Positions 37,915 through 56,384 are shown, counted from the stretch's first letter. The stretch is DNA of 64,000 bases from an uncultured Alphaproteobacteria bacterium (GCA_965371625.1 CBDUZE010000002.1:177668-241667); one strand, 5' to 3'. Notes: generated from the letters alone by a model not told the origin. Numbers and translations: made by a program.

Positions 37915-39081
37915 GGTGGCGCCCGCTCGAGGTCGCAACCCGCGCCATCTCCCAACTCGCGATCACGGCCTGTTGCACCCATCTCAGGGGCATGCAGGAA
38001 CGGTGCAACTAGGTATCCAAACCCCACCAGACGAACAAATTCGCGGCGCGCCGGAGCCCCCTGATGGGGTGCCGCGCGCTTTTCACAAGCGCCGCCGGCC
38101 AACGCGAGAACGGATTATCGCAACCAATAGTCGGTACACATCAATGACTTCGACAAATCTTGGTCGGGCGAAAACGTGTCGGCGTTGGTGGAAAACCAAG
38201 CTGGGAAAAGCAAGAACTACGGTTGATTAGGCACCCAGAGAGGTATAGTATGCGTTCTTCGATCTAAATGCGGGAAAGTATCTTCTAGGTACTTTATGGT
38301 GATTGCGGCCTCACTCCCATTTTGTACAAATTCGGCTTAAGAATCAACATCTTGCAGCCGTGTTGCGAGCGAGGCAAGGGGATACCTGGAGGCTCAATTG
38401 AGTTAGGTCGCCTATCCAGACCGATTTTGATCGGCACCTTATGGTGAGTCTCTGAGCATAGAAGTCACCGCGGATGCCAGCCTGGTGGCTGTTGTGACCC
38501 AGACGAGACGCTCGGATTGACCGACATGTCCCAATCGATGCTTTTGGGGGTGTGGCACACGAGAGACTGTAGGTATACGAACTGGCGTCCGTTTCGGCAC
38601 TCGGTCATTGGTTCTCTAGCCGGACGCCAGGACATCACTGACCCTGGCCGCTTTTCGCTCCTTCTGGTAACCGCGAGCCGCCCGTCAAACACTGGCGAGG
38701 CATTGCAATCAGGATTGGACCATAGAGGGAAGGTGTGGATCAGAACCCTCCGCGACGCAATCAGGATCGATTGGCATTTGACCGACCTGGTTCCCGGGCT
38801 TTGTTCGATAGCCAGAGACCAAATTGCGCATCGTTTATCACGTCTTGTTTCACGCCTGCTACAGGGTCAACCGCGCGCCCAATTCCCGGACCGCGGCTGT
38901 GGCATCATCATTTCCGGATTACCGGACAGGTCGAGAGGCTTGACGACGCGGCAGAAAATCCCTCCTGGGGCGCGAGCCAATCACTATGGCCATCACTCGC
39001 AGCTTCTTCTCACTTCATAGTGACCACGGTGGAAACAACTGGGTAACGTCGACTTTAGATCGGGAAGCAAAGGAGCACAAG

Positions 39082-39936
39082 ATGTGTACATTTTTGAAAT
39101 TTCTGCTTCTGAGTGTGAGTCTTCTGGTATACGCGGCCTATATCCCCGGGGCGCTCAGTCAAGACCCCAGTTTTGTAATGAAACGTGCGGTAAAGTATTT
39201 CGACGATACCGCCGTGCCGCAAATCATAGGAGGTACGATTGCAGATCCATCGGACTGGCCGGCAACGTTTGTATTTATTAGTCCTCAGGGTGGCGGCTGT
39301 ACGAGCACTGCAATTGGCCCAAAGGTAATCTTGACAGCAGCTCATTGCATTGGCGATAACGCTAAGGGTATTGTGGAACTGAATGGACGCACGGTGGCAG
39401 CTGCATGCTATCATCATCCTGATTACCACAACAACGTGTCGGACACTGATCCGAAATGGTCCGAAAAGGTATCTCCAGACTTTGCACTTTGTATAACTGA
39501 CGACCAGCTTGCAGGGTTAGATTTCGAGAACATCGATAAGGAGGGAACCGAGCTCAAGCTTGGGCAGACTATCCAACTTGTTGGTTTTGGATGCAATGCA
39601 ATCGGCGGAACGGACAACGGGTTTGGCGTTCTATATGAAGGCAATTCCGCCGTCCAGAGCCTGCCCACGCCACCGAGCTACTATACGATAACACTCGGTG
39701 GTGCGGCTGTCTGTTATGGAGATAGTGGCGGTGGAGCGTACGTACTCTTAAATCCACCGGCAAAGGCACGTCGGGTTTTGATGGGTGTGGCCTCTCGCGG
39801 CAACATCTCCACAAGATCCTTGCTCTCGACAACTAGCTTGTCTGGCTTTATTTCTTGGGCTGATTCCTTAGCCGGGCGACACAACACGAAGATATGCGGG
39901 ATAGATACCGGTGTTCCAGGGTGCAGATCGATGTAG
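39082..39936 (+). CDS. Secreted trypsin-like serine protease (S1 family)
   Basis: RBS 'aaggag' then ATG. Signal peptide 'MCTFLKFLLLSVSLLVYAAYIPGALS'. Propeptide then 'IIGG'. Catalytic triad 'LTAAHC', Asp, 'GDSGG'. GC ~48%. Confidence 0.8.
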   Translation: MCTFLKFLLLSVSLLVYAAYIPGALSQDPSFVMKRAVKYFDDTAVPQIIGGTIADPSDWPATFVFISPQGGGCTSTAIGPKVILTAAHCIGDNAKGIVELNGRTVAAACYHHPDYHNNVSDTDPKWSEKVSPDFALCITDDQLAGLDFENIDKEGTELKLGQTIQLVGFGCNAIGGTDNGFGVLYEGNSAVQSLPTPPSYYTITLGGAAVCYGDSGGGAYVLLNPPAKARRVLMGVASRGNISTRSLLSTTSLSGFISWADSLAGRHNTKICGIDTGVPGCRSM

Positions 39937-40010
39937 GACCCGATTTACCTTCACCCTAGAAATCATAAGACCAATTGTGATGTCCCCGGCATAATGAGGA
40001 GTGTATCGGC

Positions 40011-42113
40011 ATGCTGAGATTTGGGAATAGATTGACCATAATAGTAATTACCTTTTGTCTTACAGCGTCCACAAGTTCGCGCGGTGACATGGTTACCTTA
40101 TTCGTTGTTAGCTCCGCGATAACAAAAGACGTCGTCGAATATGTGGCAAGAATCGGCAAGCCCCAACGCATACACGTGAAGAAGGGTCAGAGATTTTCGG
40201 ATATTTTGAGAGCGCGATGCGGTCGCCTCAATAACAACTTCATTAATTTATTGAGAACGTCATCGGCGACAGAATTGGGAAAATTGTTGAATTTGGATTT
40301 TGCGTATGAAAGAGATCAATTTATAGAACTCCCTGCGTGTTTGAGTTTGCCACAATATACGGCCACAGAGAGAATAGTTGAAGAAGATGACAGCCCTTGG
40401 GATTATTTTTCCAATGACTCTGCAGGATTTATGTATTTTGAGACTCCATCGCCAATGGTGAAACGGATTGTGGCTACAGCGGCAGATGCTCCGACCACCT
40501 TTATGGACGCCTTTGGGCACTTGAATCCCGGCTTCACATCCTCGGGTATCATTCACGAAGGAGAAGTGGTTCAAGTACCAAAAACACCGGCTGTTTGGTC
40601 ATCTCTGCAAATTCGGCCCGATATCGCAGCGTTTCTCGAGCCGGTCTCAGATGTCCTTGCTCGGCTCTTGATGGAAGGAGGACAAACCCGAGAAACTGCA
40701 CTTATTGAGAGACCAGAAGAAATCATTCTGTATGCACCTCTAACTAATGCGCAGCTGGTTGAGTTTAAATCTTGTCAGGCATCACAGACCTCAACAAATC
40801 TTGACTATGCCTTTGACCCAATGGAGTTAACGAAAGTTATCACCGTCAACAAAAGGTTCCTCCAAGAAGAGCGGCGGTCGACCCCAGATAGGACGACAAT
40901 AGTGATCCCGGATACTGGTCTCTATACCCATGGGAGGACACCATTTCATAACGGACGCTTGATACTGGTCGATCGGTATAGTCCTAGCGATCCCTACGCG
41001 AGCATTCGTCCTTCATCCAAATACCCGTATCGTCATCACGGCACCTACGTAGCTTCAGTAGCCCTGGGGGGCGCGAGCTTTCTGCAGGCATTCGATGTCA
41101 TGGGAGTGGATATTAAGATTGCGCCTATTAATATAATCGAAGAAAAAGAAAGGATATGCTGGCGTTCAAATGCGGCTGCATACAGTTGCCCTTACCATCG
41201 CGTAAAGACGGAGGCTTTCAACAATGCAATGGCAAGTGCCGAGACTCACAATGCCATTCTCAATCTTAGCGTAGGGCGCCTAACACGATTTATCGGCCTT
41301 GAAAAATATCTGAATAAGGATAGTAGTATATTGTTCGTTGTGGCTGCTGGAAACGCCGGCCAGTCACTTTCGAAAAGAAAGACCTATCCGTCACGGTATG
41401 GCGGGAGCAATAATGATGGGAAGTACAATCTGATATCGGTGGCTGCGCTGGACTTAGACGGCTCGAGAGCTGGTTTTTCAAATTATGGAAGCGAATACGT
41501 TGACATCGCGGCACCAGGTTGTCGTCAGCGCGTGTTTGAATACAATGATGAGTCACGTAGCTTCAGCTTCCAGAGGAAATCGGGCACATCATTTGCAGCG
41601 CCGTTGGTCTCGTTTACTGCAGCATTGATCAAGTCCTTTTGGTTGGGCGCGTCGCCGCGTAAAATCAAACACCGCATTATCACAGCTTCGGATATTTCCG
41701 AAGAACTCTGGGGGAAGGGCGAAGTGGCCGGTGGGCGCATGCTAAATGTTGTGAAAGCGGTTTCTTTGTATCAAGACATAGTAGAAGCTAGAGCTGATGG
41801 AGAATCCAGACTTATTCGGGGTGAGATAGATTCAAATCATCGGATTTTCGAGTTTTGTGATGGGAGACTCACGCTTTACCGAAAGGATAACCCAGGGCGC
41901 CCGCAAATAAAGAAAATTACACCTATTGCAGACCCGACATCTCAGGAGCCGAGAATTCTGGTTTACTGGACCAATGTTGAGGGTGTATTGAGGCCTGAGA
42001 TATGCGCGCAACAAGAAATTACCATAAAGATAACAGAGGATTTTACCGGGCGGGTATACGAGTTACCGACAGATAGTATAATCGACGTTGTTTTTTCGGA
42101 GCGGTTGAACTAG
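40011..42113 (+). CDS. Secreted subtilisin-like serine protease (S8 family) with N- and C-terminal extra domains
   Basis: RBS 'gaggag'. Signal peptide 'MLRFGNRLTIIVITFCLTAS'. Catalytic 'VIPDTGL' (Asp), 'HGTYVASVALGG' (His), 'GTSFAAPLVS' (Ser). GC ~45%. Confidence 0.85.
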   Translation: MLRFGNRLTIIVITFCLTASTSSRGDMVTLFVVSSAITKDVVEYVARIGKPQRIHVKKGQRFSDILRARCGRLNNNFINLLRTSSATELGKLLNLDFAYERDQFIELPACLSLPQYTATERIVEEDDSPWDYFSNDSAGFMYFETPSPMVKRIVATAADAPTTFMDAFGHLNPGFTSSGIIHEGEVVQVPKTPAVWSSLQIRPDIAAFLEPVSDVLARLLMEGGQTRETALIERPEEIILYAPLTNAQLVEFKSCQASQTSTNLDYAFDPMELTKVITVNKRFLQEERRSTPDRTTIVIPDTGLYTHGRTPFHNGRLILVDRYSPSDPYASIRPSSKYPYRHHGTYVASVALGGASFLQAFDVMGVDIKIAPINIIEEKERICWRSNAAAYSCPYHRVKTEAFNNAMASAETHNAILNLSVGRLTRFIGLEKYLNKDSSILFVVAAGNAGQSLSKRKTYPSRYGGSNNDGKYNLISVAALDLDGSRAGFSNYGSEYVDIAAPGCRQRVFEYNDESRSFSFQRKSGTSFAAPLVSFTAALIKSFWLGASPRKIKHRIITASDISEELWGKGEVAGGRMLNVVKAVSLYQDIVEARADGESRLIRGEIDSNHRIFEFCDGRLTLYRKDNPGRPQIKKITPIADPTSQEPRILVYWTNVEGVLRPEICAQQEITIKITEDFTGRVYELPTDSIIDVVFSERLN

Positions 42114-43139: not shown

Positions 43140-43322
43140 GTGAATAGCAATCAGTTCAGAAGATGGCTGGCCAAGCAGGGCTGCACGTTTGGCAAGAAAT
43201 CCGGCGGCCACATCACTATATTTCGCGGTGGCAGAGAAAGCCAAATGCCGGTGCACGGCGGCCGCAAGCAGCTCGGCAAAGGGCTTATGGCAAAGGTCAA
43301 GAAGGATCTAGGACTAGAATGA
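43140..43322 (+). CDS. hicA: HicA-family mRNA interferase toxin
   Basis: 60 aa 'MNSNQFRRWLAKQGCTFGKKSGGHITIFRGG...MPVHGGRKQLGKGLMAKVKKDLGL' carries the HicA dsRBD-like motif. GTG start. Confidence 0.75.
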   Translation: MNSNQFRRWLAKQGCTFGKKSGGHITIFRGGRESQMPVHGGRKQLGKGLMAKVKKDLGLE

Positions 43323-43750
43323 GGTACAGCTACCCGGTTGATTTGACGCCCGATGATAACGACACCCTGCTAGTGACGTTTCCCGACCTGCCGCCGGCCA
43401 CCACGTTTGGCGAAGACGAGGCGGACGCCCTGCTCCATGCCCGCGACGCTCTGACCGCAATGTTCGTCCATTTCATGGACGAGCGCCGGGCGATCCCGCG
43501 TCCCTCGAAGCCCAGGAAGGGCCAGCGGGTTGTCGAGGTAGCGCCCCTGGTTGCGGCGAAGCTCGCCCTTTACGAGGCCATGCGCGCCCAAGGGGTGACC
43601 AAGGCGGCGCTCGCCCGGCGGCTCGATTACCACGGCCCACAGGTCGACCGGCTGCTCGATCTCCATCACAAATCGCGCCTCGAGCACCTGACGCGGGCTC
43701 TTGCGACGCTCGGCAAACGGCTGGTGCTCGAGGTTCGCGACGCGGCTTGA
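43319..43750 (+). CDS. hicB: HicB-family antitoxin (RNase H-like N-domain plus C-terminal HTH)
   Basis: ATGA overlap with the hicA stop. 'LLVTFPDLPPATTFGEDEADALLHARDAL'. C-terminal HTH 'VTKAALARRLDYHGPQVDRLL'. Confidence 0.7.
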   Translation: MRYSYPVDLTPDDNDTLLVTFPDLPPATTFGEDEADALLHARDALTAMFVHFMDERRAIPRPSKPRKGQRVVEVAPLVAAKLALYEAMRAQGVTKAALARRLDYHGPQVDRLLDLHHKSRLEHLTRALATLGKRLVLEVRDAA

Positions 43751-43828: not shown

Positions 43829-44412
43829 ATGCCTGACCTGAGCCTCGAGGCCCGGGCGCGGGGCCCGGCCGCCGGCATCGACGAGGCCGGACGCGGGCCC
43901 TGGGCGGGGCCGGTGGTGGCGGCGGCGGTGGTGCTCGATCCGGCGGCTATTCCCGAGGGCCTCGACGATTCGAAGAAGCTCAGCCCGGCCCGCCGCCGGT
44001 ACCTGTTCGAGGCCCTGGTGCCTTGCGCCCGGGTCGGCCTTGGCGCCGCCTCCGTCTCCGAGATCGACCGTCTCAACATCCTCGGCGCCACCATGCTCGC
44101 GATGGCCCGTGCGCTGGCCCGCCTCGGCCTGGTCCCGGCGCTGGCGCTGGTCGACGGCAACCGGGCGCCGGAGCTGCCGTGCCCGGCGCTGACGGTGGTG
44201 GGGGGCGATTCCCGCTCGCTTTCGATCGCCGCGGCCTCGATCGTCGCCAAGGTCACCCGCGACCGGCTGATGGCGCGCCTGGCCGCGGCCCACCCCGGCT
44301 TCGGCTGGGAACGCAACGCCGGCTACGGCACGCCCGAGCACCGCGCCGCGCTCTATCGGCTAGGGGTCACCCCTCACCACCGCACGAGCTTCGCGCCCAT
44401 ACGTAAGATATT

Positions 44413-44431
<19 letters not shown>
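43829..44431 (+). CDS. rnhB: Ribonuclease HII
   Basis: '[22 protein letters not shown]', 'DDSKKLS' and 'VDGN' motifs. Confidence 0.85.
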
Positions 44432-45553
<1,122 letters not shown>

Positions 45554-45585
45554 GGCGAGGGCCCCGGGGCCCGCCAAGGGTGAGG

Positions 45586-46326
45586 ATGAAGCGCATCGCG
45601 CGGGCCGCCCGCCCGGCCCTCGTGGCCCTGGCCGTGGCCCTGGCCGTGGCTCTGACCGTGGCTCTGACCGTGGCCCTCGCGCCGGCCGCGGCGAGCGCTG
45701 CCGGCGAGGTCCACCGCCAGGTGCCGGTCGAGGTGGATCCCGCGCGCAACTACCTCTTCTACCTGCACGGCGCCTGGATCGAGCGCCACGGCCTCGGCCA
45801 ACCCCATCCCATACATGGGCCGTACCGCTTCGAGGACATCGCCGCGGCGTTTGCCGCGCGAGGTTTCGTCGTCATCGCCGCGGCCCGGCTCCGGGAAACC
45901 GTGGCCCCGCGCTACGCCGAGGGGATCGCGGATCAGGTTCGCCACCTGCTCGCGCGCGGGGTGGCGCCCGAGAACATCACCATCGCCGGCCATTCGAAGG
46001 GCGGCATGATAACGCTCGCCGCCGCCACCCTGCTGCGGGCGCCCACCATCAACTTCGTGGTCATGGCCGGCTGTGGCCGCGAAGGGAGCTCGTTTCGCCG
46101 CGGCTACGAGCGCTTCATCGCGCGCCGCGCCGCCGCGCTCCAAGGGCACATTCTCTCGCTCTACGACCGCGCCGACCGCGAGGCCGGGAGCTGCCGGCAA
46201 GCCTTGGAGCGGGCCATCCGGGTCGACGGCCGCGAGACCACCTTCAGCACCGGGCTCGGCCACGGGCTTTTCTACGCCCCCCGCGACCTGTGGATCGACG
46301 CGGTCGTGAGCTGGGTGGGCGGCTAG
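45586..46326 (+). CDS. Secreted alpha/beta hydrolase
   Basis: Signal peptide 'MKRIARAARPALVALAVALAVALTVALTVALAPAAASA'. 'IAGHSKGG' nucleophile elbow. Confidence 0.6.
   Translation: MKRIARAARPALVALAVALAVALTVALTVALAPAAASAAGEVHRQVPVEVDPARNYLFYLHGAWIERHGLGQPHPIHGPYRFEDIAAAFAARGFVVIAAARLRETVAPRYAEGIADQVRHLLARGVAPENITIAGHSKGGMITLAAATLLRAPTINFVVMAGCGREGSSFRRGYERFIARRAAALQGHILSLYDRADREAGSCRQALERAIRVDGRETTFSTGLGHGLFYAPRDLWIDAVVSWVGG
45620..45682 (+). repeat. 12-bp tandem repeat (gtggc[ct]ctg[ga]cc), about 4.5 copies, encoding a (VALA/VALT)n signal-peptide core
   Basis: Direct reading 'gtggccctggcc gtggccctggcc gtggctctgacc gtggctctgacc gtggccctcgcg'. Confidence 0.7.
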
Positions 46327-46395
46327 CCGTCGCCGACCCCGCCCTCCCGCACCGCGCGGTGGCAGGGCACGATGAGCGAGATCGGATTCGTGATC
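46327..46395 (-). pseudogene. Remnant of an O6-methylguanine-DNA methyltransferase (Ogt) C-terminus
   Basis: The minus-strand translation '*LRKRITNPISLIVPCHRAVREGGVGDG*' contains the Ogt active-site 'PCHR' motif. A 28-nt identical core is shared with the ada 3' end at ~54212-54239. It is bounded by stops on both sides. Confidence 0.45.
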
Positions 46396-46477
46396 CGCTT
46401 TCGAAGCTATCGCGCGCGCTACTTCGAGATGGCGCCGTTGTCACGGCCCAAGGCTCTGAGAAAGCACGCCAGCCTAA

Positions 46478-47488
46478 CTACTCGCATTCCCTGATCGACA
46501 ACCCTTCCGGCAGCACCGTATCGCGATCACCGCAGGCTGTGTCGAGCTGATCCTGGACCAACCCCCTTGCCAGCTTGAGGTTGGCGCCGCGCAGGTCGGC
46601 ATTTCCAAGCACCGTAGCGGTGAGAATAGACCTTGCGAGGTTCGCGTCCTTCAAGACAGCGTTCCTCAAGTCGGCTCCTTCAAGGTTTGCTCTCCCCAGA
46701 TTGGACTTCGTCAGATTGGCGTCACGTAACACGGCTTGCTGTAGATTCGCTCGTTCCAGGTTTGCTGATTCCAGATGAGCACCTTGCAGCTGAGCGTTGC
46801 TCAGATCAGCTCTTTTCAGCTTGGCGCGGCGCAAGTCAACGCCGGTCATTATTGCTCCTCGCAGGATCGCCCTTTCCAATTCAGCAAATTCAAGGGTAGC
46901 TTTCGCGAGGTTGGCTTCGCTCAAGTCAGCCTCTTTCAGGTCCGCTCCATTCATTTTGCAGCCCGTGAGTATGGCGCGCACCAGGTTGGCTTTCTGCAGG
47001 TCCACTCGGCTCAAGTTGACTCGCTTGAGATCCGTGCCACTCAAGTCGGCTTTCTCCAGGTCGGCCCCACTCAACTTGGCCCCTCGCATTTTCGCCCCAC
47101 GCATGTTGGCCTTTTCCAATATGGCCCCGCGCAGATCAGCACCCCCGAGCATGGCCCCTGCGAGGTTCGCCTTCGACAGATCCGCCCCGTTCAAGTTCGC
47201 GGAGCTCAGCATGGCGCGACTGAGGTTTGCGCCATGAAGATCGGCCCGTGCCAAGTTGGCCGAATTCAGGATGGCCCGACTCAGATCGGCGCCTTTCAGG
47301 CTGGCGTTCTGGAGATCGGCGCGCGCCAGATCGGCTCCTTTAAGGTCGCAATTCGGGCATTCTCTCGTCGCCCTTAGCACGTCCACGCTCTTCTTATCGA
47401 AGGCGTGGCCATTGACGAACGGTACAAGCACAGTCGCTACGGCGATAGACGCAATCGTCAGCGTCTTCAGTCGTAGTTTTCTGGTCAT
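46478..47488 (-). CDS. Secreted pentapeptide-repeat protein (copy A)
   Basis: ATG 'MTRKLRLKTLTIASIAVATVLVPFVNGHA' signal peptide. Then about 50 A(D/N)LxxA(N/D)L pentapeptide repeats. C-terminal 'CGDRDTVLPEGLSIRECE'. Confidence 0.8.
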   Translation of the reverse strand: MTRKLRLKTLTIASIAVATVLVPFVNGHAFDKKSVDVLRATRECPNCDLKGADLARADLQNASLKGADLSRAILNSANLARADLHGANLSRAMLSSANLNGADLSKANLAGAMLGGADLRGAILEKANMRGAKMRGAKLSGADLEKADLSGTDLKRVNLSRVDLQKANLVRAILTGCKMNGADLKEADLSEANLAKATLEFAELERAILRGAIMTGVDLRRAKLKRADLSNAQLQGAHLESANLERANLQQAVLRDANLTKSNLGRANLEGADLRNAVLKDANLARSILTATVLGNADLRGANLKLARGLVQDQLDTACGDRDTVLPEGLSIRECE

Positions 47489-47697
47489 CACAGGTTCCTT
47501 CTCAAGTTCCAATCTGCTGAAAAGCCCCTCCTTTGTCACTGATTTGGGTGATACGTTTCCTTATCAAACCCTCCATCCGCATCCGACATTTGCGCCAATT
47601 GCCGTGCTCATGCTATCTCCGCTGGGCCAGTGGGCCGCCGAGAGCGAAGAGCATACCGTGGCCGAGTTGCCGCCGCGCGGCATCACTGCTCGGCGCG
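46478..47697. repeat. Segmental duplication copy A (about 1.22 kb, ~93% identical to 49091-50307)
   Basis: Identity starts exactly at the PRP stop codon and extends ~210 bp upstream of the PRP start. Small indels in the 5' flank. Confidence 0.85.
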
Positions 47698-48287
47698 TCC
47701 TTCTCCTCAATTCGCCCATCAATCAATGATAGACATGGCGCCAGAAATGACAATCAGGATGTCCCCTTAATGTTCTACGTGAATCCCCTTAGCCAAGATC
47801 GCCCAGATGGCTTCTCCCGGCTGCCGACGGCGATAGCACAACGGACGTTCGTGCCACAACTCCCACACTAACCAGCACGGTAGGTCACGATCCTCCCTCT
47901 ACCTGGCTGACTGAGTTGGCGATGGGAAACCCCGCCAAACCGTCAACTCAGGCGCCAAGGGCACGCCTCGCCTTGGGGCGGCCTTGTTTCGGTACCGGGA
48001 ACCTTGAGATTGGCGCACCCCGTTCTCGGGACACAATTCATCGGCGCGCCTGAAGGCGTGGAGCGATGCGTCTCCGCCCTCTTGTTGGCTCGTCGAGCCG
48101 GCGCTGAATTTTCGGTTCTTCTCTCTAGAAAAAAGGAGCGACCCGGACGCCGCCCCTTAACTTTGCGCCGTTAAGCTTGCGGTCGGCCGCTGAGCGTTAC
48201 TTCATCTTCGCCGCGCGATTGGCCAATTTAAGAGCCTCTTGAAGCATTTGCTCCGCTCTTTCGGAATTATGGAGACCCATGCTGCGA

Positions 48288-48720
48288 TCAAGCAATACGA
48301 AGTTGATCATCGAGGCTGAAAACCGGTACTTCAACCCACTTCTTTAGGTGCGGCAAGGCCTTATTGCCTTCCTGATGGCACGCCATGCACGCGCTGCGAA
48401 CACCGGCGAATTTTTGCGAGGCCGGTGTCGCGACCATGAAGGTATGGGAGGAGACATCCCTTGGGTGTGGTTTACTGGCGGTCTTGTTTGAGCGATACCC
48501 GATCGTCGCCATATGACAATCGACGCATTTGACGCCAGCCTTCTCCATCGGGCTTCCCGCATACATCTTGGCATTGGGCCGCATGGCATAGCCGTTCTCG
48601 GAATGACAACTTATACACAACTTTTCAGGCTTCATGCGGAGTTAAGCGTTCTCCCATTTGCCGTGGAAGGTGTGACAGGTCACGCAGCTCATACCGGCCG
48701 TATTGAAGTGGGTACTCTTA
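48288..48720 (-). pseudogene. Fragmented multiheme c-type cytochrome (4 CxxCH motifs in two frames)
   Basis: ORF 48288..48635 has 'CISCH', 'CVDCH' and 'CMACH'. It has no signal peptide or TM. Immediately upstream, in another frame, 'PDFTKSTHFNTAGMSCVTCHTFHGKWENA*' carries a fourth CxxCH. This is consistent with a frameshifted and truncated NapC/NrfH-like or larger multiheme gene. GC ~52%. Confidence 0.5.
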
Positions 48721-49090
48721 GTGAAATCCGGCCACTACGAAGTGAGCGTCCTTGAAAGAATCCTGGCCAGATTGAACACGTTGCGCCTCCCGTAGCATCG
48801 TCAGTGTGTCGGTGGGCGAATCTACGCTCCCGGTATCCTAGGCCAACGAAAATCCGCCCAGGAAAACGAGGTATGCACCTGCCAGAAATACCGAACTAGC
48901 CAGTCGAACGAGCCTCTAGAACGGTTCCAGGTCAATTGGAGCCGCTCTCAGGCCGCGCCGGCGCGGACCCTTGGATCCGCTGCCGTGAGCGAAAAGAATC
49001 TGGAGCGATTCCAGGCGACCTGGAATTGCTCTGGAATACTCGGGTCATTTCTTGAATTCTCTGGCCGATGCATGTGGGAAATGCAGCTAT

Positions 49091-50101
49091 CTACTCGCAT
49101 TCCCTGATCGACAACCCCTCCGGCAGCACCGTATCGCGATCACCGCAGGCTGTGTCGAGCTGATCCTGGACCAACCCCCTTGCCAGCTTGAGGTTGGCGC
49201 CGCGCAGGTCGGCATTTCCAAGCACCGTAGCGGTGAGAATAGACCTTGCGAGGTTCGCGTCCTTCAAGACAGCGTTCCTCAAGTCGGCTCCTTCAAGGTT
49301 TGCTCTTCCCAGATTGGACTTCGTCAGATTGGCGTCACGTAACACGGCATGCTGTAGATTCGCTCGTTCCAGGTTTGCTGATTCCAGATTCGACCGGTTC
49401 AAGTGAGCGTTGCTCAGATCAGCTCTTTTCAGCTTGGCGCGGCTCAAGTTAACGTCGGTCATTATTGTTCCTCGCAGGATCGCCCTTTCCAATTCAGCAA
49501 ATTCAAGGATGGCTTTCGCGAGGTTGGCTTCGCTCAAGTCAGCCTCTTTCAGGTCCGCTCCACTCATTTTGCAGCCCGTGAGTATGGCGCCCTTCAGGTT
49601 GGCTTTCTGCAGGTCCACTCGGCTCAAGTTGACTCGCTTGAGGTCCGTGCCACTCAAGTCGGCTTTCTCCAGGTCGGCCCCGCTCAACTTGGCCCCTCGC
49701 ATTTTCGCCCCACGCATGTTGGCCTTTTCCAAAATGGCCCCGCGCAGGTCAGCACCCCCGAGCATGGCCCCTGCGAGGTTCGCCTTCGACAGATCCGCCC
49801 CGTTCAAGTTCGCGGAGCTCAGCATGGCGCGACTGAGGTCCGCTCCATGAAGATCGGCCCACCCCAAGTTGGCCGAATTCAGGATGGCCCGACTCAGATC
49901 GGCACCTTTCAGATTGGCATTCCGGAGATCAGCGCGCGCGAGATCGGCTCCTTTCAGGTCACAACCCGGGCATTCTCTCGACGCCCTTAGCACGTCCATA
50001 CTCTTCTGCTCGAAAGCGTGACCATTGACGAATGGTCCAAGCACAGCCGCTACGGTTATAGACGCAATCGTCAGCGCCTTCAGTCGTAGTTTGCTGGTCA
50101 T
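49091..50101 (-). CDS. Secreted pentapeptide-repeat protein (copy B)
   Basis: 336 aa, a near-identical paralog of 46478..47488 with the same signal peptide and repeat array. Confidence 0.8.
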   Translation of the reverse strand: MTSKLRLKALTIASITVAAVLGPFVNGHAFEQKSMDVLRASRECPGCDLKGADLARADLRNANLKGADLSRAILNSANLGWADLHGADLSRAMLSSANLNGADLSKANLAGAMLGGADLRGAILEKANMRGAKMRGAKLSGADLEKADLSGTDLKRVNLSRVDLQKANLKGAILTGCKMSGADLKEADLSEANLAKAILEFAELERAILRGTIMTDVNLSRAKLKRADLSNAHLNRSNLESANLERANLQHAVLRDANLTKSNLGRANLEGADLRNAVLKDANLARSILTATVLGNADLRGANLKLARGLVQDQLDTACGDRDTVLPEGLSIRECE

Positions 50102-50307
50102 CACAGGCTCCTTCTCAAGTTCTAATCCGCTGAAAAGCCTCTCTTTTGTCACTGATTTGGGTGATACGTTTCCTTATCAAACCCTCCATTCGTATCCGGA
50201 ACTCGTGCCAATTGCTGTGCTCGTGCCATCTCCGCCGGGCGAGTGCACCGCTGAGAGCGGAGAGCATACTGTGGCCGAGTTGCGCCGCGCGGCATCACTG
50301 CTCGGCG
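49091..50307. repeat. Segmental duplication copy B
   Basis: See copy A. Confidence 0.85.
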
Positions 50308-50374
50308 CTTCCCTGTCCGGGCAGCCCCGCGGCCTCGCTTGAGCGGTGCGCGTCCCTCTCGAAAAGGGCTCGCG

Positions 50375-50587
50375 CTAGTCCATCCCGCCGCCGCGGACCC
50401 GCACGCGCCGTCCCGCCAGCTCCGCGATCACGGTGACCACGGCGATGGCCAGAAATATCAGGGCGCCCAGACCCCAGACCCGGATGCTGGGCGGCATGTA
50501 GATCATCGGGATGGTGGCGTAGAGCGTCGCCAGGACGCCCCATACCGCGAAGATGCTGCCGATGAGCAATGCGTCGAAGCTCTTCAT
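50375..50587 (-). CDS. Small 2-TM membrane protein, last gene of the oxidase operon
   Basis: RBS 'aaaggaga' then ATG 'MKSFDALLIGSIFAVWGVLATLYATIPMIYMPPSIRVWGLGALIFLAIAVVTVIAEL'. 23 bp after the subunit I stop. Confidence 0.45.
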   Translation of the reverse strand: MKSFDALLIGSIFAVWGVLATLYATIPMIYMPPSIRVWGLGALIFLAIAVVTVIAELAGRRVRVRGGGMD

Positions 50588-50610
50588 GACCTTTTCTCCT
50601 TTACTGTGGT

Positions 50611-52296
50611 TCAGTGGCCGCCAGCGGCGCTGCCGCCCACGACGATGGGAACGCTTTCCAGAATCTCGAAGCTCACGGCGGTGAAGGCGTACATGGCGCC
50701 GATCAAGACGAACACGCAAAGCGGTCCGACCCAGGCGCCGTGCCGACCGATGGCCGCACCGCCCCAGGAGACGCTCGATAGATCCTCGATGCCTTGGCCC
50801 GCGCGGCCGACCTCTCCGACCAGACTCCGCACGAGGGCGTAGACGTACACCGCCAGCGCGACCGTCATGAACGTGGCGCCGATACCGACGACACCCATCG
50901 CCGTCCCCCAGACGAAGGGAGCATCGCCTTCATAGCTGAGGTCGAAGAGACGCCGCGGGACGCCCTTGTATCCGGCCACGAGACCGGCGCTGCCGAACAG
51001 CAGCAGCCCCAAGGTGGTGACGTAGGGCATCCTGGCGAGAAGCGATGGGCGCCAGATTCGGCCCCCCGCCAGCGCCGGGATCACGTAGATCAGGGCGGCA
51101 ATGAAGGTGAGCGTGACCGTGCCCAACGTCAGGAAGTGGAAGTAGCCCGGTACGAAGAAGGTATCGCTCAACAACAGCGCCAGCTTCTCCTGAATGAGCA
51201 CGAAGGAGAACACGCCGCCCAGGGCGAGATTGATCACCGCCATCCCGATCGCCGCCATCGCCGGATTGCTCCAGGGGAGCATACCCACCCACCCGAACAG
51301 ACCGCGGGCACCTTGGGCCCTGGCGTGCGATTCGAGCGAGGCGACGATGATCAAAAACACCAAAATCGTCGGCACGGCGATGAACAAGGAGAGCAGTGAC
51401 CCGGACATCCGCACGGCGTCGGCCAACCCGGGCTCGAGGAACATGTGGTAGAGCGAGGTGGGCGGCACGAAGATCAGGTACATGGCGAAAACGAATTTCG
51501 AGACGCGCGCTCCGAAAATCGATTTGACCCCGGTGATGACCTCGACCAGCACGTACCAGATCACAACCGTGGCCATGAGCGGCAGGTAGTGCATGTTGTG
51601 GAACAAGACGTGCCAGCTCATGGTGTAGCCGGAGACCTCGGGCCCGAGCCCGAACGCCCACAGCATGGCGGGCAGAAAGGCGTTGACGCCGGCGACGGCA
51701 CTGACCATGAGCAACCCGGCCCAGGCCACGGAGGCGAAGGCAATCGAGGACCAGGTGTCGATCTTGCCCGCGAGCTTGGGGCGCAGCGCCGTCATCAGGC
51801 TCGAGGCGGCGACCACGAAGAGACCGGCACTGAGCAGGATGTAGCCGAGATAGAAGTAGCCCGCCTCGGTCATCTCGAACTCGACCAGCTCCGGATTGCC
51901 GTCGTAGAGCAGGATCGCTCCCAGGTTGGGCGCGATCTCGCTCAACACGAACCCCGCGGTCATCAGGATCAGGCCCAGCCACGCCAGCGGTCGCCAGGCG
52001 ATGCCTTCGCTGCCATCGGTGTAGACGCTGGCCAGGATGAGCACGAAAGCCGCCTGCATGAAGTAGAGCCAGTAAAAGAAAATGGTGGTTCCATGCAGGC
52101 TCAGCATTGTGTACGCCGTCTCCGGCCCGAGCTCGACAAAGCCAGCGCGGTCGAAGGCCGAAAACGCGCCGTAGACGAGTCCCAAAGCCAGGGCGACGAT
52201 GGCCAGGGCGGTGAAACTCAACAGCAGCCTCTTGTCTCCCTGGGGAAGGGCCTTCAGGCCCTCGACCAGTGGATTCTTGATCGCTTTCTCAGTCAT
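50611..52296 (-). CDS. Heme-copper oxidase superfamily subunit I-like protein (divergent)
   Basis: 561 aa, at least 12 TM. His residues are spaced like HCO helices II/VI/VII/X ('LSLHGTT', 'WHVLFHNMHY', 'YHMF', 'YFHF'). Canonical HH and HxH appear as YH and YxH. RBS 'ggagcag'. Confidence 0.7.
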   Translation of the reverse strand: MTEKAIKNPLVEGLKALPQGDKRLLLSFTALAIVALALGLVYGAFSAFDRAGFVELGPETAYTMLSLHGTTIFFYWLYFMQAAFVLILASVYTDGSEGIAWRPLAWLGLILMTAGFVLSEIAPNLGAILLYDGNPELVEFEMTEAGYFYLGYILLSAGLFVVAASSLMTALRPKLAGKIDTWSSIAFASVAWAGLLMVSAVAGVNAFLPAMLWAFGLGPEVSGYTMSWHVLFHNMHYLPLMATVVIWYVLVEVITGVKSIFGARVSKFVFAMYLIFVPPTSLYHMFLEPGLADAVRMSGSLLSLFIAVPTILVFLIIVASLESHARAQGARGLFGWVGMLPWSNPAMAAIGMAVINLALGGVFSFVLIQEKLALLLSDTFFVPGYFHFLTLGTVTLTFIAALIYVIPALAGGRIWRPSLLARMPYVTTLGLLLFGSAGLVAGYKGVPRRLFDLSYEGDAPFVWGTAMGVVGIGATFMTVALAVYVYALVRSLVGEVGRAGQGIEDLSSVSWGGAAIGRHGAWVGPLCVFVLIGAMYAFTAVSFEILESVPIVVGGSAAGGH

Positions 52297-52317
52297 CGTT
52301 CTGCTCCTGCCCTGCCG

Positions 52318-53319
52318 TCACTCGACGATGATCTTGCCCTTCATCATGTCGTGACCGAGGCCGCAGTAGACGGTGCAGTAGACCAGGTACTCGCCGGGCT
52401 CGGTGAAGGTCATGGTCATCTCGGCCATGGTCCGCGCCGGACGACGCATGATGTGCCCGGCAAATCCGACGTTGACGGAGGCGCCGTGGATGGCGTCCAT
52501 CGACATGATGCGGAAGCGGTAGGGAAGGTCCGCCTCGAGCCGAAGCACCTCGGGCTCGTAGGCGTAGCGCATCGCCATCATATAGATGTCGATCGGCCCG
52601 GTGTCGTCTTGGCCCGGTGAGGTGCTGCCGTGCTCCGCTTCGGCTTCGTCGTGCCCCGCTTCGGCCGCGCCATGCTCCGCTTCGGCTTCGTCATGAGCCG
52701 GTGGGACTACGACGGGCTCCGACTCGGCCGCCTGGTGGCGGTCGCCCGTGGTCCCCATCGAGAGCTCCGCGACCCCCGCGATCGCCTGTTGCTGAACCTC
52801 GGTGAACGCCTGGGCCGAGATCTCGCCCACCGTGTAAGCACGGTAGGCCGCGGTCAGCTCCAATAGCCCGATCGGCGTGTGGACACGGCCCATTTGGTGC
52901 TCGTCGGCCATTGCCTCGTCACCGTGACGGGCAGGGGCAAGCGCCGTTTGGTCGTCGTCGCCATGACCGACGTCACCGGGCATGGCGTTTCGCCCGGACT
53001 CGGACTCCATATGACGCCTGGGTTTGACGCTGCCGTCAGGCAGACTGAACTTTTCGACGAACGCTTCGGTGCGGAGGCGGAAATCGGCCGGCGTCATTCC
53101 GCCGGCAGCGCCGCCGTGACCGCCGTGAACCGCTTTGCTTGCGCCGACCGCCTGTGCTTCGGACAGGAATCTGAAGCTGGTCGGCGCGGCATCATAGGCC
53201 GCCCATACGAAGTAGAGGCTGATGACGGCGAACCCGACCGTGGCAACGAAACCCCACCTCGTGGTGAAATGCCTTCTCGGGCTCTCGCCCGCGAGGCCTT
53301 CGTTCTCTTGCTCTGACAT
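52318..53319 (-). CDS. Heme-copper oxidase subunit II-like protein with CuA cupredoxin domain
   Basis: ATG 'MSEQENEGLAG' after RBS 'ggaggg'. One N-terminal TM. His/Glu-rich duplicated linker 'GHDEAEAEHGAAEAGHDEAEAEHG'. The C-terminal 'AGH...YCTVYCGLGHDMM' gives H..CxxxCxxxHxxM, a complete CuA ligand set. Confidence 0.7.
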   Translation of the reverse strand: MSEQENEGLAGESPRRHFTTRWGFVATVGFAVISLYFVWAAYDAAPTSFRFLSEAQAVGASKAVHGGHGGAAGGMTPADFRLRTEAFVEKFSLPDGSVKPRRHMESESGRNAMPGDVGHGDDDQTALAPARHGDEAMADEHQMGRVHTPIGLLELTAAYRAYTVGEISAQAFTEVQQQAIAGVAELSMGTTGDRHQAAESEPVVVPPAHDEAEAEHGAAEAGHDEAEAEHGSTSPGQDDTGPIDIYMMAMRYAYEPEVLRLEADLPYRFRIMSMDAIHGASVNVGFAGHIMRRPARTMAEMTMTFTEPGEYLVYCTVYCGLGHDMMKGKIIVE

Positions 53320-53486
53320 GACCCAGTCCCTCCGTGAAAGACATTGCTGCCACGCTAGCCCTGGCACCGCGACGGACCCCGCTCGCGGGGAGTGGGTGCC
53401 GCCCTGAACCGTGCTGGAGGCTGGGATCGCTTAGCTGCGGTGGCGCGACAAAACGCGGCGCCACGCGTCAACGACGACAGCCGGGG

Positions 53487-53834
53487 CTAGCACTGAGAGG
53501 GATGGTGGGGAGGGCCGCGGGCCCATCGAACGATCTGGGGCCTTGCGACCAAGACGCCGTCGCTGTCGGGCTCGCCGAGCGCCGGGACGACGCCGTCATG
53601 GGCCGTGGCGGTAGCGAGGGTCGCCAGGGCCAGCCCGCACGGCATAACGCAGGGACAGATCTGCGGGCAGTTAGTGCAAAATGCCTCTTGCGAACCGTGG
53701 TGCGAGGTTTCCCGAGCTGCGGCCGCCGCGCCCTCGTGGGGCGCGGACGGCATCGCGGCATGCACGAGTGGACCGCTGGCGACAGTAATCACCAGCAGGA
53801 TCAGCAATAGGCGCTTGAGAAGCGGCGATATCAT
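53487..53834 (-). CDS. Secreted Cys/His-rich small protein
   Basis: ATG 'MISPLLKRLLLILLVITVASGPLVHA'. 'SHHGSQEAFCTNCPQICPCVMPC' metal-binding-like cluster. Sits between the FNR box and the oxidase genes. Confidence 0.35.
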   Translation of the reverse strand: MISPLLKRLLLILLVITVASGPLVHAAMPSAPHEGAAAAARETSHHGSQEAFCTNCPQICPCVMPCGLALATLATATAHDGVVPALGEPDSDGVLVARPQIVRWARGPPHHPSQC

Positions 53835-53964
53835 CTGCAACGTGCCGGGGTCGCCGCCCGGTTCTTGCGTCAGCCGTGGGTACCGGACGGCTCGACCAGC
53901 GCAACAATAGAACCATGATCAAGACCCGAGAATGTGACACGGTGTCCTGCGACAATTTGTCTCA

Positions 53965-53978
53965 ATGATCTCGATCAA
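53965..53978. promoter_or_regulatory. FixK/FNR-type box (aTGAT-ctcg-ATCAA) upstream of the oxidase operon
   Basis: 9/10 match to TTGAT-N4-ATCAA. Located in a locally AT-rich segment ~130 bp upstream of the Cys-rich gene start. Confidence 0.45.
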
Positions 53979-54110
53979 TGGTTGCGGGAAACGCGCGACG
54001 CGCTGCGCTCCCGCCGCAGGTGATTTGGACGTCAGACGACCGCGCGAACGGCTATCGCCGCCGATCCGCCCGCGGTGCCGGGCCGAGGTTCGCGCCGGTC
54101 TTGGGCGGGC

Positions 54111-55229
54111 TCACCCGGCGGCGGCCCGCTTCTGCCGCGCGGCGGCGCGTTCGCTGGCGAGCAATGCCTCCTTGCGCTCGAGGCCCCAGCGATAACCGCC
54201 GAGACCGCCGTCCTCGCGCAGCGCGCGGTGGCAGGGCACGATGAGCGAGACCGGGTTGGTGGCGCAGGCCCGGCCCACGGCGCGCTGGGCCTTGGGTTTG
54301 CCGAGGCGGGCGGCGATCTCGCCGTAGCTCCGGGTCTCGCCCAGGGGGATGCGCTTGAGCTCCTCCCAGACCCGCCACTGGAAGGCGGTGGCGCGCACGT
54401 CGAGCGGGAGGTCGAGGCGCGGCTCGGCGCCCGCCAGGTAGCCGACCAGCGCCGCGCTCCAGCGCCCCAGGCCACGGTCGTCGCGGCGGATCTCGGCGGC
54501 CGGGTATTCCTGGGCGAGCTCGCCCTCGAGCTCGGCATCGTCGTCGCCGAGATAGACCGCGCAGACGCCGCGCTCGGTGGCGCCGACCAAGAGCCGGCCG
54601 AGCGAGGAGGCGACGACGCTGTAGCGGATGCGGGCGCCGCGTCCGCCCTTGGCGTAGGTCGCCGGGGTCATGCCGAGCTGCGTCGGCGCGCGCTCGTAAA
54701 GCCGGCTCGAGGAGCCGTAGCCGGCCTCGTAGAGCGCCCCCGTCACCGGCTCGCCGCGGCGCAGACCGGCCTTGAGCCGGCCCAAACGGCGGGCGTCGGC
54801 GTACTGGCGCGGGGTGATGCCCATGACGCGCTTGAAGGTGCGCTGCAGATGGTAGGGGCTGAGGCCGGCGTGGCTCGAGAGCTCGGCCAGCGTCGGCGGC
54901 CCGCCGTCGCCATTGCCGGCACCCTGGCCAGCGCCCTGGCCATCGATGTACCGGCACACCCGGCGCACCATGTCGAGGTGGGGATCGCCGGCCTCGGCGT
55001 CGCCGGGGCGGCAGCGGCGGCAGGCGCGGTAGCCGGCCTGCTCGGCGGCCTCGGGCACGGCGAAGAAGTGGACGTTCTCGCGCCGCGGCCGGCGGCTCGG
55101 GCACGACGGCCGGCAGTAGATGCCGGTCGAGCTTACGGCGTAAACGAAGCTGCCGTCGAAACCGGCATCGCGGCTCTCGACGGCGTGCCAGTGCTCATTC
55201 ACGGTCATGGTCGTTGTCTCCGGTGGCAT
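54111..55229 (-). CDS. ada: Bifunctional Ada: N-terminal Zn methylphosphotriester domain/AraC-type HTH plus O6-methylguanine-DNA methyltransferase
   Basis: 'YCRPSCPSRRPRR...CRRCRP' Ada N-terminal Cys4 domain. HTH 'LAELSSHAGLSPYHLQRTFK'. C-terminal 'LIVPCHRAL' Ogt active site. The start is possibly at 55208 ('MTVNEHWH'). Confidence 0.85.
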   Translation of the reverse strand: MPPETTTMTVNEHWHAVESRDAGFDGSFVYAVSSTGIYCRPSCPSRRPRRENVHFFAVPEAAEQAGYRACRRCRPGDAEAGDPHLDMVRRVCRYIDGQGAGQGAGNGDGGPPTLAELSSHAGLSPYHLQRTFKRVMGITPRQYADARRLGRLKAGLRRGEPVTGALYEAGYGSSSRLYERAPTQLGMTPATYAKGGRGARIRYSVVASSLGRLLVGATERGVCAVYLGDDDAELEGELAQEYPAAEIRRDDRGLGRWSAALVGYLAGAEPRLDLPLDVRATAFQWRVWEELKRIPLGETRSYGEIAARLGKPKAQRAVGRACATNPVSLIVPCHRALREDGGLGGYRWGLERKEALLASERAAARQKRAAAG

Positions 55230-55271
55230 GATCTCGATCCCCGGTGTTAGAGCACGGGCGCGGGCGCCATT

Positions 55272-56384
55272 CTATCCGAAGCTTGCGCCCGAATCCTCCC
55301 CGGGCGCCGCGCCCCGGGCGTGGCGGATCACCTTCTTCATCAGGGTCGGCAGCGCCAGCGCCTCCAAACGCCCTAAGGGATGCCAGCGGGCGCCGTCGGG
55401 GGGCGCGGCCTCAGCCTCCGCCGCCCACCCCGTCATCACCATGAGCTCGAGGTGAAAGTGGCTGAAGGTGTGGCCCACCGAGCCCTCGACGAGGCGCCAG
55501 TCGGCGGCGAGCGGGGCCAGCGCCCGGGCCTCGGCGGCGTGCCACGCCCGCGCCCGCCACGGCGTCGAGGGCACCTCGGTCATGCCGCCCAACAAGCCGC
55601 GCTCGGGGCGCCGCCGCACCAACAGCTCGCCCGCTCCCGGAAGCGCGCGTTTGAGCGCCACGAAGGCGACGCCGTGGCGCCTCGGCCGCGCCGCCTTGGG
55701 GGCTCGCCTGGGCAGGCGCTCGGGCCGGCCCCGGGCGCGGGCGACGCAGGCCGCGGCCCAGGGACAGCGACCGCACGCGGGCTTGCGCGGCAGACAGATC
55801 GTGGCGCCGAGCTCCATCACCGCCTGGGCGTAGTCGCCGGCGCGCTCCGCGGGCGTGAGCCGCGCCGCCAGCTCCTTGAGCCGGGGCTTCGCCGCCGGCA
55901 GCGGCTCGGCGACGCCAAAGAGGCGCGCCATCACCCGCTCGACGTTGCCGTCCACCACCACCGCTCGGCGCTCGAAGGCGATGGCCGCGATGGCGGCCGC
56001 GGTGTAGGGCCCGATACCGGGCAGCGCGCGAAGCTCCGCCTCGTCCTCGGGAAAGCGCCCGCCCAGGCGCTCGCTGAGCTCTCGGGCGCAGCGCACGAGG
56101 TTGCGCGCGCGGGCGTAGTAGCCGAGCCCCTGCCAGGCATGGAGCACCTCCTCGAGCGGCGCCTTGCTGAGCGCGCCGAGGCTGGGCCAGCGGCCGACGA
56201 AGTCGTGGAAGTAGGGAACCACCGTGGCCGCGGTGGTCTGCTGCAACATGACCTCGCTGAGCCACACCCGGTAGGGGTCGGGGCGGGTCCCCGGCGAGGC
56301 CCGCCAGGGCAGCTTTCGGCGCTGGCGGTCGTACCAGGCCAGCAGCTCGGAAGGCCGCGGATCTCGCCTCGCCGTCTTGGACAT
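55272..56384 (-). CDS. mutY: A/G-specific adenine DNA glycosylase
   Basis: 'VMLQQTTAATVVPYFHDFVGRWPSL...WQGLGYYARARNL' HhH-GPD motif. Four-Cys cluster 'CLPRKPACGRCPWAAAC'. C-terminal NUDIX-like domain. Confidence 0.85.
   Translation of the reverse strand: MSKTARRDPRPSELLAWYDRQRRKLPWRASPGTRPDPYRVWLSEVMLQQTTAATVVPYFHDFVGRWPSLGALSKAPLEEVLHAWQGLGYYARARNLVRCARELSERLGGRFPEDEAELRALPGIGPYTAAAIAAIAFERRAVVVDGNVERVMARLFGVAEPLPAAKPRLKELAARLTPAERAGDYAQAVMELGATICLPRKPACGRCPWAAACVARARGRPERLPRRAPKAARPRRHGVAFVALKRALPGAGELLVRRRPERGLLGGMTEVPSTPWRARAWHAAEARALAPLAADWRLVEGSVGHTFSHFHLELMVMTGWAAEAEAAPPDGARWHPLGRLEALALPTLMKKVIRHARGAAPGEDSGASFG

Follow-up and report, generated by a model that had tools for sequence, protein, structure and literature searches.

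Two nested foreign inserts, the younger edged by an ada-derived scrap, between the convergent hydrolase and ada genes of an uncultured alphaproteobacterium

We analysed a 7.8 kb stretch of atypical DNA (positions 46327-54110) that lies between an alpha/beta-hydrolase-like gene and the bifunctional gene ada in a 64,000-nucleotide (nt) window from an uncultured Alphaproteobacteria bacterium (GCA_965371625.1 CBDUZE010000002.1:177668-241667); by the window we mean the whole of the latter sequence. The 7.8 kb stretch consists of two separately acquired foreign blocks, a nested pair placed between tail-to-tail genes. An oxidase-like module adjoins ada, and a block of pentapeptide-repeat protein (PRP) genes separates this module from the hydrolase gene. 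At the hydrolase-side edge of the PRP block there is a short scrap of an ada-type gene, here called the patch. It is highly probable that the locus was filled in two steps: insertion of the oxidase-like module, which turned an empty locus (state A) into an intermediate one (state B), followed by that of a 4.0 kb piece with the ada scrap at its edge (state B to state C). The fuller explanation, in which these two steps are combined with an origin of the patch as a relic of a disrupted ada gene of the same clade, is the one that we favour with moderate confidence.

Three allelic states of the locus

Contigs of relatives were found through the closest relatives of the hydrolase and through members of the 90% clusters of window proteins; exact-sequence look-ups of the window hydrolase and Ada gave no match, owing to start-codon differences. 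The three states are taken from independent assemblies. In state A, represented by L001 (JGI) and L002 (Logan), which are 81-87% and 91-95% identical to the window at the nucleotide level, ccrM-hydrolase is directly tail-to-tail with ada(-mutY). There are 6-17 nt between the hydrolase and ada stop codons, and 19-35 nt are unaligned. Window positions 45074/45416-46319 and 54109 onward align to the state-A contigs, and nothing between them does. The initial annotation, which had been made from the window alone, suggested looking in related genomes for exactly this adjacency of ccrM-hydrolase and ada-mutY without the intervening segment, and both contigs have it. No intact second ogt was seen in the relatives.

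State B is found in L083 (JGI), L084 (NCBI metagenome), L104 (ENA, 16 kb, spanning rnhB to smc) and L105 (Logan). The order here is hydrolase, a spacer of ~51-54 nt, the gene of a 70-amino-acid (aa) protein, a COX1-like gene, a COX2-like gene, ~0.7 kb of further DNA, ada and mutY. Window positions 46342-50364 are missing from all four contigs, and ~25-35 nt of spacer stand in their place. Another contig, L108, is 98% identical to the window and confirms the right-hand junction and the part through ada. Across L083, L084, L104, L105 and L108 the oxidase-like module is 91-98% identical at the nucleotide level. State C is the window itself, that is, state B plus 4,023 bp (46342-50364). The features on which the argument depends are the following.

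45580-46326, plus strand: alpha/beta-hydrolase-like gene with weak Abhydrolase matches; left native flank, convergent with ada in state A
46324-46341, no strand assigned: native hydrolase stop and first 15 nt of the spacer ('GVGDG*'), 15/18 identical to L104/L105
46342-46392, minus strand: ada-derived patch, 17 codons TNPISLIVPCHRAVREG; left end of the younger insert, truncated on both sides
46393-50364, minus strand: PRP block, body of the younger insert, GC 0.574; PRP1, cytochrome pseudogene, PRP2
50365-54108, minus strand: oxidase-like module, the older insert, GC 0.650; in state B, absent from L001/L002
54111-55229, minus strand: bifunctional ada, intact and native, 372 aa; counterpart of the patch at 54210-54261

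Synonymous divergence (dS) between the window and L002, L083 or L084 is ~0.07-0.16, and therefore states A, B and C are alleles within one shallow population. The order of the last two states follows from the spacer. A piece of ~25 nt (GGCGG[C/T]GATC...) is common to both types of state B and absent from the window. Since state B keeps this piece, which the window has lost, it is not derivable from state C by deletion. The last 300 nt of the window hydrolase are 99.0% identical to L104/L105, and the left and right window flanks are about equally close to L104. It is also L104 and L105 that set the left boundary of the younger insert at 46341/46342; the hydrolase stop and the next 15 nt read TAGCCGTCGCCGACCCCG in the window and TAGCCGCCGCCGACCGCG in L104.

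The initial annotation had listed the atypical contents of the segment correctly, namely two PRP open reading frames (ORFs), a dead multihaem cytochrome, COX1-like and CuA genes, and a Cys-rich ORF. GC content is low as well, at 0.55-0.65 between the repeats described below versus 0.70-0.78 outside them; it drops from 0.71-0.75 in the flanks to 0.57 and 0.65 within the segment. The view of the initial annotation that the segment is one unit of ~7.8 kb had to be abandoned, because in L083, L084, L104 and L105 the oxidase-like module is present and both the PRP block and the ada-type remnant are missing. The two modules also differ in composition, with GC 0.574 and third-codon-position GC (GC3) 0.67 for the PRP block and its genes against GC 0.650 and GC3 0.80-0.92 for the oxidase-like module; GC3 of the native genes is 0.91-0.93. 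Because the composition differs and because state B has one module without the other, we conclude that the two were acquired separately. Nor do they make up a conserved island, since a genome scan with the COX1-like protein found the triad of COX2-like, COX1-like and small gene kept in 80 genome loci (50-71% identity), none with a PRP, methyltransferase, cytochrome or Cys-rich neighbour beside it.

The ada-derived patch

Positions 46324-46392 and 54193-54261 form a direct repeat of 69 nt (81% identical, 7,869 nt apart), the second copy of which is within the 3' part of ada. The repeat codes for the NP.S....PCHR motif of the methyltransferase domain and contains an identical core, which measures 29 nt in our alignment; the 28 nt reported at first were real, only one short. 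When the 3' region of ada was compared with the window by blastn, 46335-46392 matched at E = 1e-14 (88% over 59 nt), and the next-best matches had E values of at least 0.003. The similarity between 46300-46420 and the 3' end of ada, an alignment that the initial annotation had proposed as a check, is accordingly significant well past the PCHR codons. The PCHR active-site motif that it saw in both copies was confirmed by the alignment and by tblastn of Ada against the window, which recovers the fragment at E = 1.4e-5. The match between ada and the fragment is far above chance and unique in the window.

The fragment had been described as 23 codons bounded by stops. It is present there, and the minus-strand frame of 46302-46442 reads DNGAISK*RAR*LRKRITNPISLIVPCHRAVREGGVGDG* (asterisks are stops), but its last six codons, GVGDG*, are native spacer. 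The demonstrably methyltransferase-derived part is 46343-46392, where 45/50 nt are identical to ada and the score is far above all shuffles. Positions 46324-46341 have no significant similarity to ada (p ~0.9), and reading either them or the state-B spacers as decayed ada remnants was not significant when tested (p = 0.16-0.9). On the other side the homology to ada stops at 46392/46393, exactly where GC content falls (junction string 46370-46403, GAGCGAGATCGGATTCGTGATCCGCTTTCGAAGC). The patch has G or C at 16/17 third codon positions, for which P = 0.012 under the codon usage of the PRP block and 0.60 under that of the host. Its GC3 is thus host-type, so that 46392/46393 marks the point where broken GC-rich ada DNA meets foreign DNA of lower GC.

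The patch keeps the active-site Cys in NP.S....PCHR, with 17 of the ~80 codons of the domain left. Stops lie 5 and 9 codons upstream and there is no start. It is truncated at both ends, and as only 85 nt separate it from the PRP1 stop, it is outside any natural gene context. It is absent from states A and B. The 'Ogt remnant' of the initial annotation is consequently not a second ogt; it is a pseudogene fragment of the Ada family.

The resident ada has all its parts: Ada_Zn_binding, AraC HTH, Methyltransf_1N and DNA_binding_1 are present (Pfam), and it scores 375.7 bits against the cutoff of 345 of the NCBIfam Ada equivalog NF011964. Its 3' end, including the stop and 2 nt beyond (54109-54300), is 94.8% identical to L002 and 95.3% to L104, and across the repeat it is identical to the island-free L002 at 71/72 positions, so that both arms are native. 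These comparisons narrow what had been proposed for the segment, namely insertion into or next to an ogt/ada-type gene. An insertion beside ada is what we find, but the resident ada is uninterrupted and native through its stop codon, and its 3' end has not been displaced. The 'breakpoint signature' likewise stands in the sense of a breakpoint within ada-type coding sequence at 46392/46393, but the intact ada does not bracket the segment as an insertion signature.

To place the patch, its 17-aa peptide was compared with the 113 best Ada homologues. It agrees at 15/17 residues with an orthologue that is 85% identical, at 14/17 with the resident Ada and with a 79%-identical one, and at 9-12/17 with most of the others; the peptide SLIVPCHRAVRE occurs in only a few of the homologues, the closest orthologues included. 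In 7.3 Gb of plasmid and chromid records the best match of the patch DNA reaches 46 bits, compared with 72.5 bits to the resident ada. The resident gene's own segment, taken as a control, reaches 65 bits to an actinobacterial gene (84.5% over 58 nt). Because the resident segment itself scores so well outside the clade, assignment of the patch to the clade is supported, not proven. A base-by-base check shows that the patch differs from the window ada and from the L002 ada at the same 6/51 nt, and its blastn identities to the L104 and L108 genes equal those to L002 and the resident gene. Three of the six differences are synonymous and the others are V/I, L/V and D/G; the Val of the patch matches the more distant orthologue L001, and the window ada and the L002 allele have Leu. 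Taken together, the changes suggest a mixture of divergence before truncation and later decay.

Origin of the inserts

The joins show 0-4 nt of microhomology, with a GACC/CC overlap at 46337-46341 and ~25 nt of recipient DNA lost. In the first step (A to B), a GC-rich operon of ~3.75 kb entered between the spacer and the ada stop codon, bringing genes for a 70-aa membrane protein, for a COX1-like protein related to ba3 and for a CuA subunit-II-like protein. In the second (B to C), the 4,023-bp piece (46342-50364) replaced ~25 nt of the remaining spacer. This piece consists of a 57%-GC foreign body (two PRP genes around a dead cytochrome) whose first 50 nt are a GC-rich ada-type scrap. Judging from the anatomy of the junctions, both insertions probably occurred by illegitimate recombination, because there is no recombinase, terminal repeat, target duplication or tRNA, and microhomology does not exceed 2-4 nt.

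As to the source of the younger piece, the PRP block is likely to have been lodged previously in an ada gene of the clade, at the Ala|Thr-Asn-Pro codons. A sister locus with this disrupted ada would then have recombined with a state-B locus, by homology on one side and by an illegitimate join on the other. Such a partner is the simplest one because in state A ada natively abuts the hydrolase gene tail-to-tail, in the same orientation as the patch. The outcome would be the present order of hydrolase, scrap, PRP block, oxidase module and intact ada, the scrap probably being functionless and the intact ada the working gene.

Several observations weigh against this origin. State C is known from one contig alone, and the donor state, a PRP block abutting a longer piece of ada, was not found in JGI metagenomes or plasmids. 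The clade specificity of the 50-nt piece is suggestive only, given that generic GC-rich methyltransferase genes reach 84.5% over 58 nt. At least six differences in 51 nt have P = 1.6e-5 to 0.045 at 1-5% neutral divergence, but P = 0.045-0.23 at 5-8%, and a local origin would then be possible. Finally, the NPI and REG states of the patch are rare in functional Ada proteins (1/113 and 3/113); they look like neutral decay and leave its age and source loosely constrained.

On a local origin, the insertion of the PRP block would have been accompanied by the copying of ~50 nt into its junction, either as templated filler or as a partial duplication, from a resident ada that was 3.8 kb distant at the time; the copy would have decayed since. 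We consider this improbable, though it deserves serious weight. The patch has the same orientation as ada and shares with it an identical 29-nt core, its nearest known sequence is the resident-type ada (72.5 bits), its rare I and G residues look like neutral decay, and at 8% neutral divergence its differences would be unremarkable (P = 0.23). However, the hydrolase end that is 99% identical to L104 implies a recent event, and at 1-3% divergence P falls to between 1.6e-5 and 0.005. The distribution of the changes does not fit well either: all six are outside the 29-nt core (P = 0.03), five of the six are synonymous or I/L/V exchanges (P = 0.02), and the Val is shared with L001, not with the window ada and L002, which have Leu. 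The initial annotation had offered a partial duplication of the 3' end of ada as one of its possibilities; a fresh duplication of this kind from the resident gene is ruled out, since the patch is without the last ~37 codons, differs at 6/51 nt from resident-type alleles and adjoins a hydrolase end that is 99.0% identical to its relatives. More doubtful than a decayed local copy is the idea that the scrap came from the ogt/ada gene of an unrelated GC-rich bacterium and lies beside the PRP block by coincidence, its likeness to ada reflecting motif conservation and GC-biased codons. The patch does correspond to the best-conserved stretch of the domain, an actinobacterial gene comes within 84.5% over 58 nt of the resident ada, and the finding was picked because of its coincidental look. 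On the other hand, SLIVPCHRAVRE is restricted to few of the 113 homologues, the closest orthologues among them, matches outside the clade reach at most 46 bits, compared with 72.5 bits for the resident ada, and the patch occupies, in the native orientation, the very place at which ada meets the hydrolase in the native arrangement.

Same-orientation direct repeats with an identical 29-nt core and diverged arms around atypical DNA are also what would be expected if the PCHR copies were the attachment sites (attL and attR) of an excisable 7.9 kb island targeting the 3' region of ada. We regard site-specific integration of this kind as the least credible of the explanations. Pfam and NCBIfam scans of ORFs of at least 45 aa in 46.3-54.1 kb revealed no integrase, excisionase or transposase, a tRNA scan of the window found none, Rfam gave no match on 44.0-56.5 kb, and end-against-end alignments of the modules for terminal direct or inverted repeats were no better than shuffles (p = 0.06-0.75). 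Nor is either repeat a hybrid att site: the arms of the ada copy are native (71/72 to L002), whereas the left copy is diverged on both arms. Moreover, the left repeat is missing from state B, where the oxidase module is already present, and at the empty site the hydrolase adjoins the ada stop codon and not the core of the gene. The native arms of ada, a state B without the left repeat and the lack of a recombinase rule out att-site or 3'-end replacement; this model and fresh duplication are both rejected because ada is native including its 3' end and because integrase, transposase, terminal repeats and tRNA are all missing. An insertion sequence or composite transposon finds no support either: transposase, terminal repeats and target duplication are missing, as are all the defining features of integrase islands that were tested. 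It is hard to credit, too, that the PCHR core of ada-type genes is a preferred capture site for integrase-less cassettes, with a functional 29-nt core and a recombinase perhaps acting in trans. About equally remote is an assembly artefact, a chimera in which metagenome assembly wrongly joined the PRP block into the contig. In its favour, no contig other than that of the window was seen in state C, none of 10 start choices brought up the PRP proteins in the protein collection, and the GC content of the block differs; yet two false joins would be needed, both leading back to the same 54-nt spacer within ~25 nt, neither junction crosses a repeat shared with the flanks, and the block has an internal structure of its own in its 93.5% duplication.

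Contents of the two inserts

The favoured two-step insertion leaves two cargoes of different kinds. The genes of the younger one are as follows.

46478-47539, minus strand: pentapeptide-repeat protein 1 (PRP1), 353-aa ORF; PF00805, E = 2.7e-75
48288-48700, minus strand: decayed C-terminal piece of a multihaem c-type cytochrome; four CXXCH in one frame, in-frame stops
49091-50152, minus strand: pentapeptide-repeat protein 2 (PRP2), 353-aa ORF; PF00805, E ~1e-75

PRP1 and PRP2 score 248 and 251 bits with PF00805 (gathering score 20.2), and all Qnr/MfpA equivalogs are below their cutoffs on these proteins. The likely start of PRP1 is the ATG at 47488, which is followed by a signal-peptide-like N-terminus; a ribosome-binding-site-like GAGAAGGAA precedes codon 17/18. 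The two proteins are identical at 323/353 aa, and the duplicated units of 1.23 kb (46474-47706 and 49087-50318) at 93.5% of 1,231 nt. Over the first ~300 nt, corresponding to the 3' ends of the genes, the units are 98-100% identical, and this gradient suggests gene conversion. The cytochrome piece has sub-threshold matches to NrfB, MtrC and c552 models. Terminal repeats of the PRP block were no better than shuffles. The searches for a donor gave none: the best relative of PRP1 in JGI metagenomes is 42% identical, and the block has only three weak PRP matches among plasmids. The matches listed in the homologue search with PRP1 are generic pentapeptide-repeat proteins, the self match not being among them. 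Exact matches in the protein collection were found neither for the two PRPs, with ten start variants between them, nor for the cytochrome and Cys-rich ORFs.

The older insert contains:

50375-50587, minus strand: 70-aa membrane protein, part of the oxidase-like module
50611-52296, minus strand: COX1-like; PF00115, 8e-38
52318-53367, minus strand: CuA subunit-II-like; CuA motif C...CG..H..M
53487-53840, minus strand: Cys-rich ORF, no family match

This cargo is a more unusual item than the ada scrap. The COX1-like family has at least 178 relatives among GTDB species genomes. Its best solved relative is subunit I of the Thermus thermophilus ba3 oxidase, of the B-family of haem-copper oxidases (E = 2e-28, residues 21-493), and the equivalents of His233-x3-Tyr237, His283, His72 and His386 are kept; the His-x3-Tyr motif (HN[MLV]HY) is found in 82/82 COX1-like loci. 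The subunit II-like protein of the window has the CuA motif YCTVYCGLGHDMM and weak CoxB and NosZ C-terminal matches. In contrast to the ba3 oxidase, the positions of His282 (CuB ligand) and His384 (haem a3 axial ligand) are occupied by Tyr in the window protein (YHMF and VPGYFHF), and the second change (VPGYFH) recurs in 81/82 loci. COX1-like thus fails the set of six canonical His ligands (two of the low-spin haem, one of the high-spin haem and three of CuB), and the oxidase-like proteins score far below the CtaD and CoxB equivalog cutoffs. A 2024 survey names gNOR as the only haem-copper family in which the active-site histidines are not conserved (PMC11214002). Since Tyr replaces His here, the COX1-like family may be an undescribed one. 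Identification with sNOR, gNOR or eNOR was not adopted, because these are without the active-site tyrosine (PMC11214002), which COX1-like keeps.

In 13-20 of 79 genomes among L003-L082, metal-related genes lie no more than 5 kb from the oxidase-like operon. They encode a heavy-metal P-type ATPase (YHS + HMBD), a Met-rich LTXXQ protein, an ICMT-like membrane protein and an RND pump with its membrane-fusion protein. Such neighbours hint that the operon is connected with copper/metal homeostasis and not with respiration. Within the COX2-like gene, three 42-nt tandem units at 52599-52724 give the N-terminal part of the protein its His/Asp/Glu-rich HDEAEAEHG repeats. L108 appears to have an extra copy, its protein being called at 382 aa versus 349 or 333 aa in the window.

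Native flanks and the rest of the window

Besides the hydrolase and ada genes, the native flanks include two further genes.

44465-45553, plus strand: ccrM-type N6-adenine DNA methyltransferase (Pfam N6_N4_Mtase + RAMA); left native flank
55272-56384, minus strand: mutY, with a tblastn match to the L001 gene beside ada and an HhH-GPD/NUDIX_4 gene in the same place in L104; right native flank

The ccrM gene is 95-96% identical at the nucleotide level in L083, L104 and L106, and its GC3 is 0.93. In L106, rnhB-ccrM is 95.7% identical to the window, and the similarity ends exactly at the ccrM stop codon (window 43844-45553); hprK-rapZ-PTS-ahcY come after ccrM where the window has hydrolase-ada-mutY. 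The 3' end of ccrM is a synteny breakpoint among close relatives. Homologues of the hydrolase number only 22 in total, and the gene context of a distant one (P0004) is unrelated.

Two other contigs differ in ada. In L107, an ENA scaffold of 2.1 kb compared with window 55060-55527, ada is cut after ~57 codons and adjoins the 3' end of a xerD-like recombinase gene; mutY is likewise truncated and followed by low-GC DNA. The scaffold is either a rearranged version of the locus or a chimeric contig. Disrupted ada genes, on the evidence of L107, occur in this clade, which speaks for the favoured origin of the patch. In L104, ada (7515-8228) is called at only 237 aa, and ~100 nt stand for the 10 nt of window 54905-54914, in a Gly/Gln-rich linker. 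An expanded repeat, a frameshift or a gap in the assembly could account for this change.

Elsewhere in the window there is a second, stronger low-GC island at 38000-42100 (GC 0.46-0.55), within which an ORF at 40011-42113 encodes a 700-aa subtilase (Peptidase_S8). A hicA/hicB-like toxin-antitoxin pair lies at 43140-43750, in a GC dip of 0.57 between an enoyl-CoA hydratase gene and rnhB. Its HicA_toxin match (E = 6e-6) is 0.4 bits under the gathering score, and the HicB-like match is above cutoff.

Comparison with known systems

With respect to the Ada/Ogt family (PF01035), the patch keeps NP.S....PCHR with the active-site Cys and is closest to the Ada orthologues of the clade; it differs in having 17 of ~80 domain codons, upstream stops, no start and two rare residues. 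Knowledge of Ada/Ogt and of island biology is unchanged by the finding. Islets that arise by illegitimate or homology-facilitated illegitimate recombination, in which a homologous anchor on one side is combined with a microhomology join on the other, have been described for naturally transformable bacteria. The window inserts resemble them in being devoid of a recombinase, terminal repeats and target duplication, and in their joins of 0-4 nt microhomology, their loss of ~25 nt of recipient DNA and their position, a neutral spacer that separates convergent genes. A further likeness is that one population, with dS ~0.1, contains empty, intermediate and filled alleles side by side. The mechanism proposed here for the inserts is read from the anatomy of the junctions alone, no donor having been found. 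The locus is ordinary strain-level genome flux, a stepwise accretion of accessory DNA. The empty, half-filled and filled states from independent metagenomes show how a spacer can be filled step by step without a dedicated recombinase. Integrase islands offer a likeness at first sight, as a direct repeat of a gene's 3'-proximal segment surrounds atypical DNA and relatives have the empty site. However, the window differs from them in having no integrase, a native target 3' end, arms that are not hybrid and an intermediate state without one of the repeats. The locus also shows that a short gene scrap at the edge of an island can mimic an att site or a duplication while being neither.

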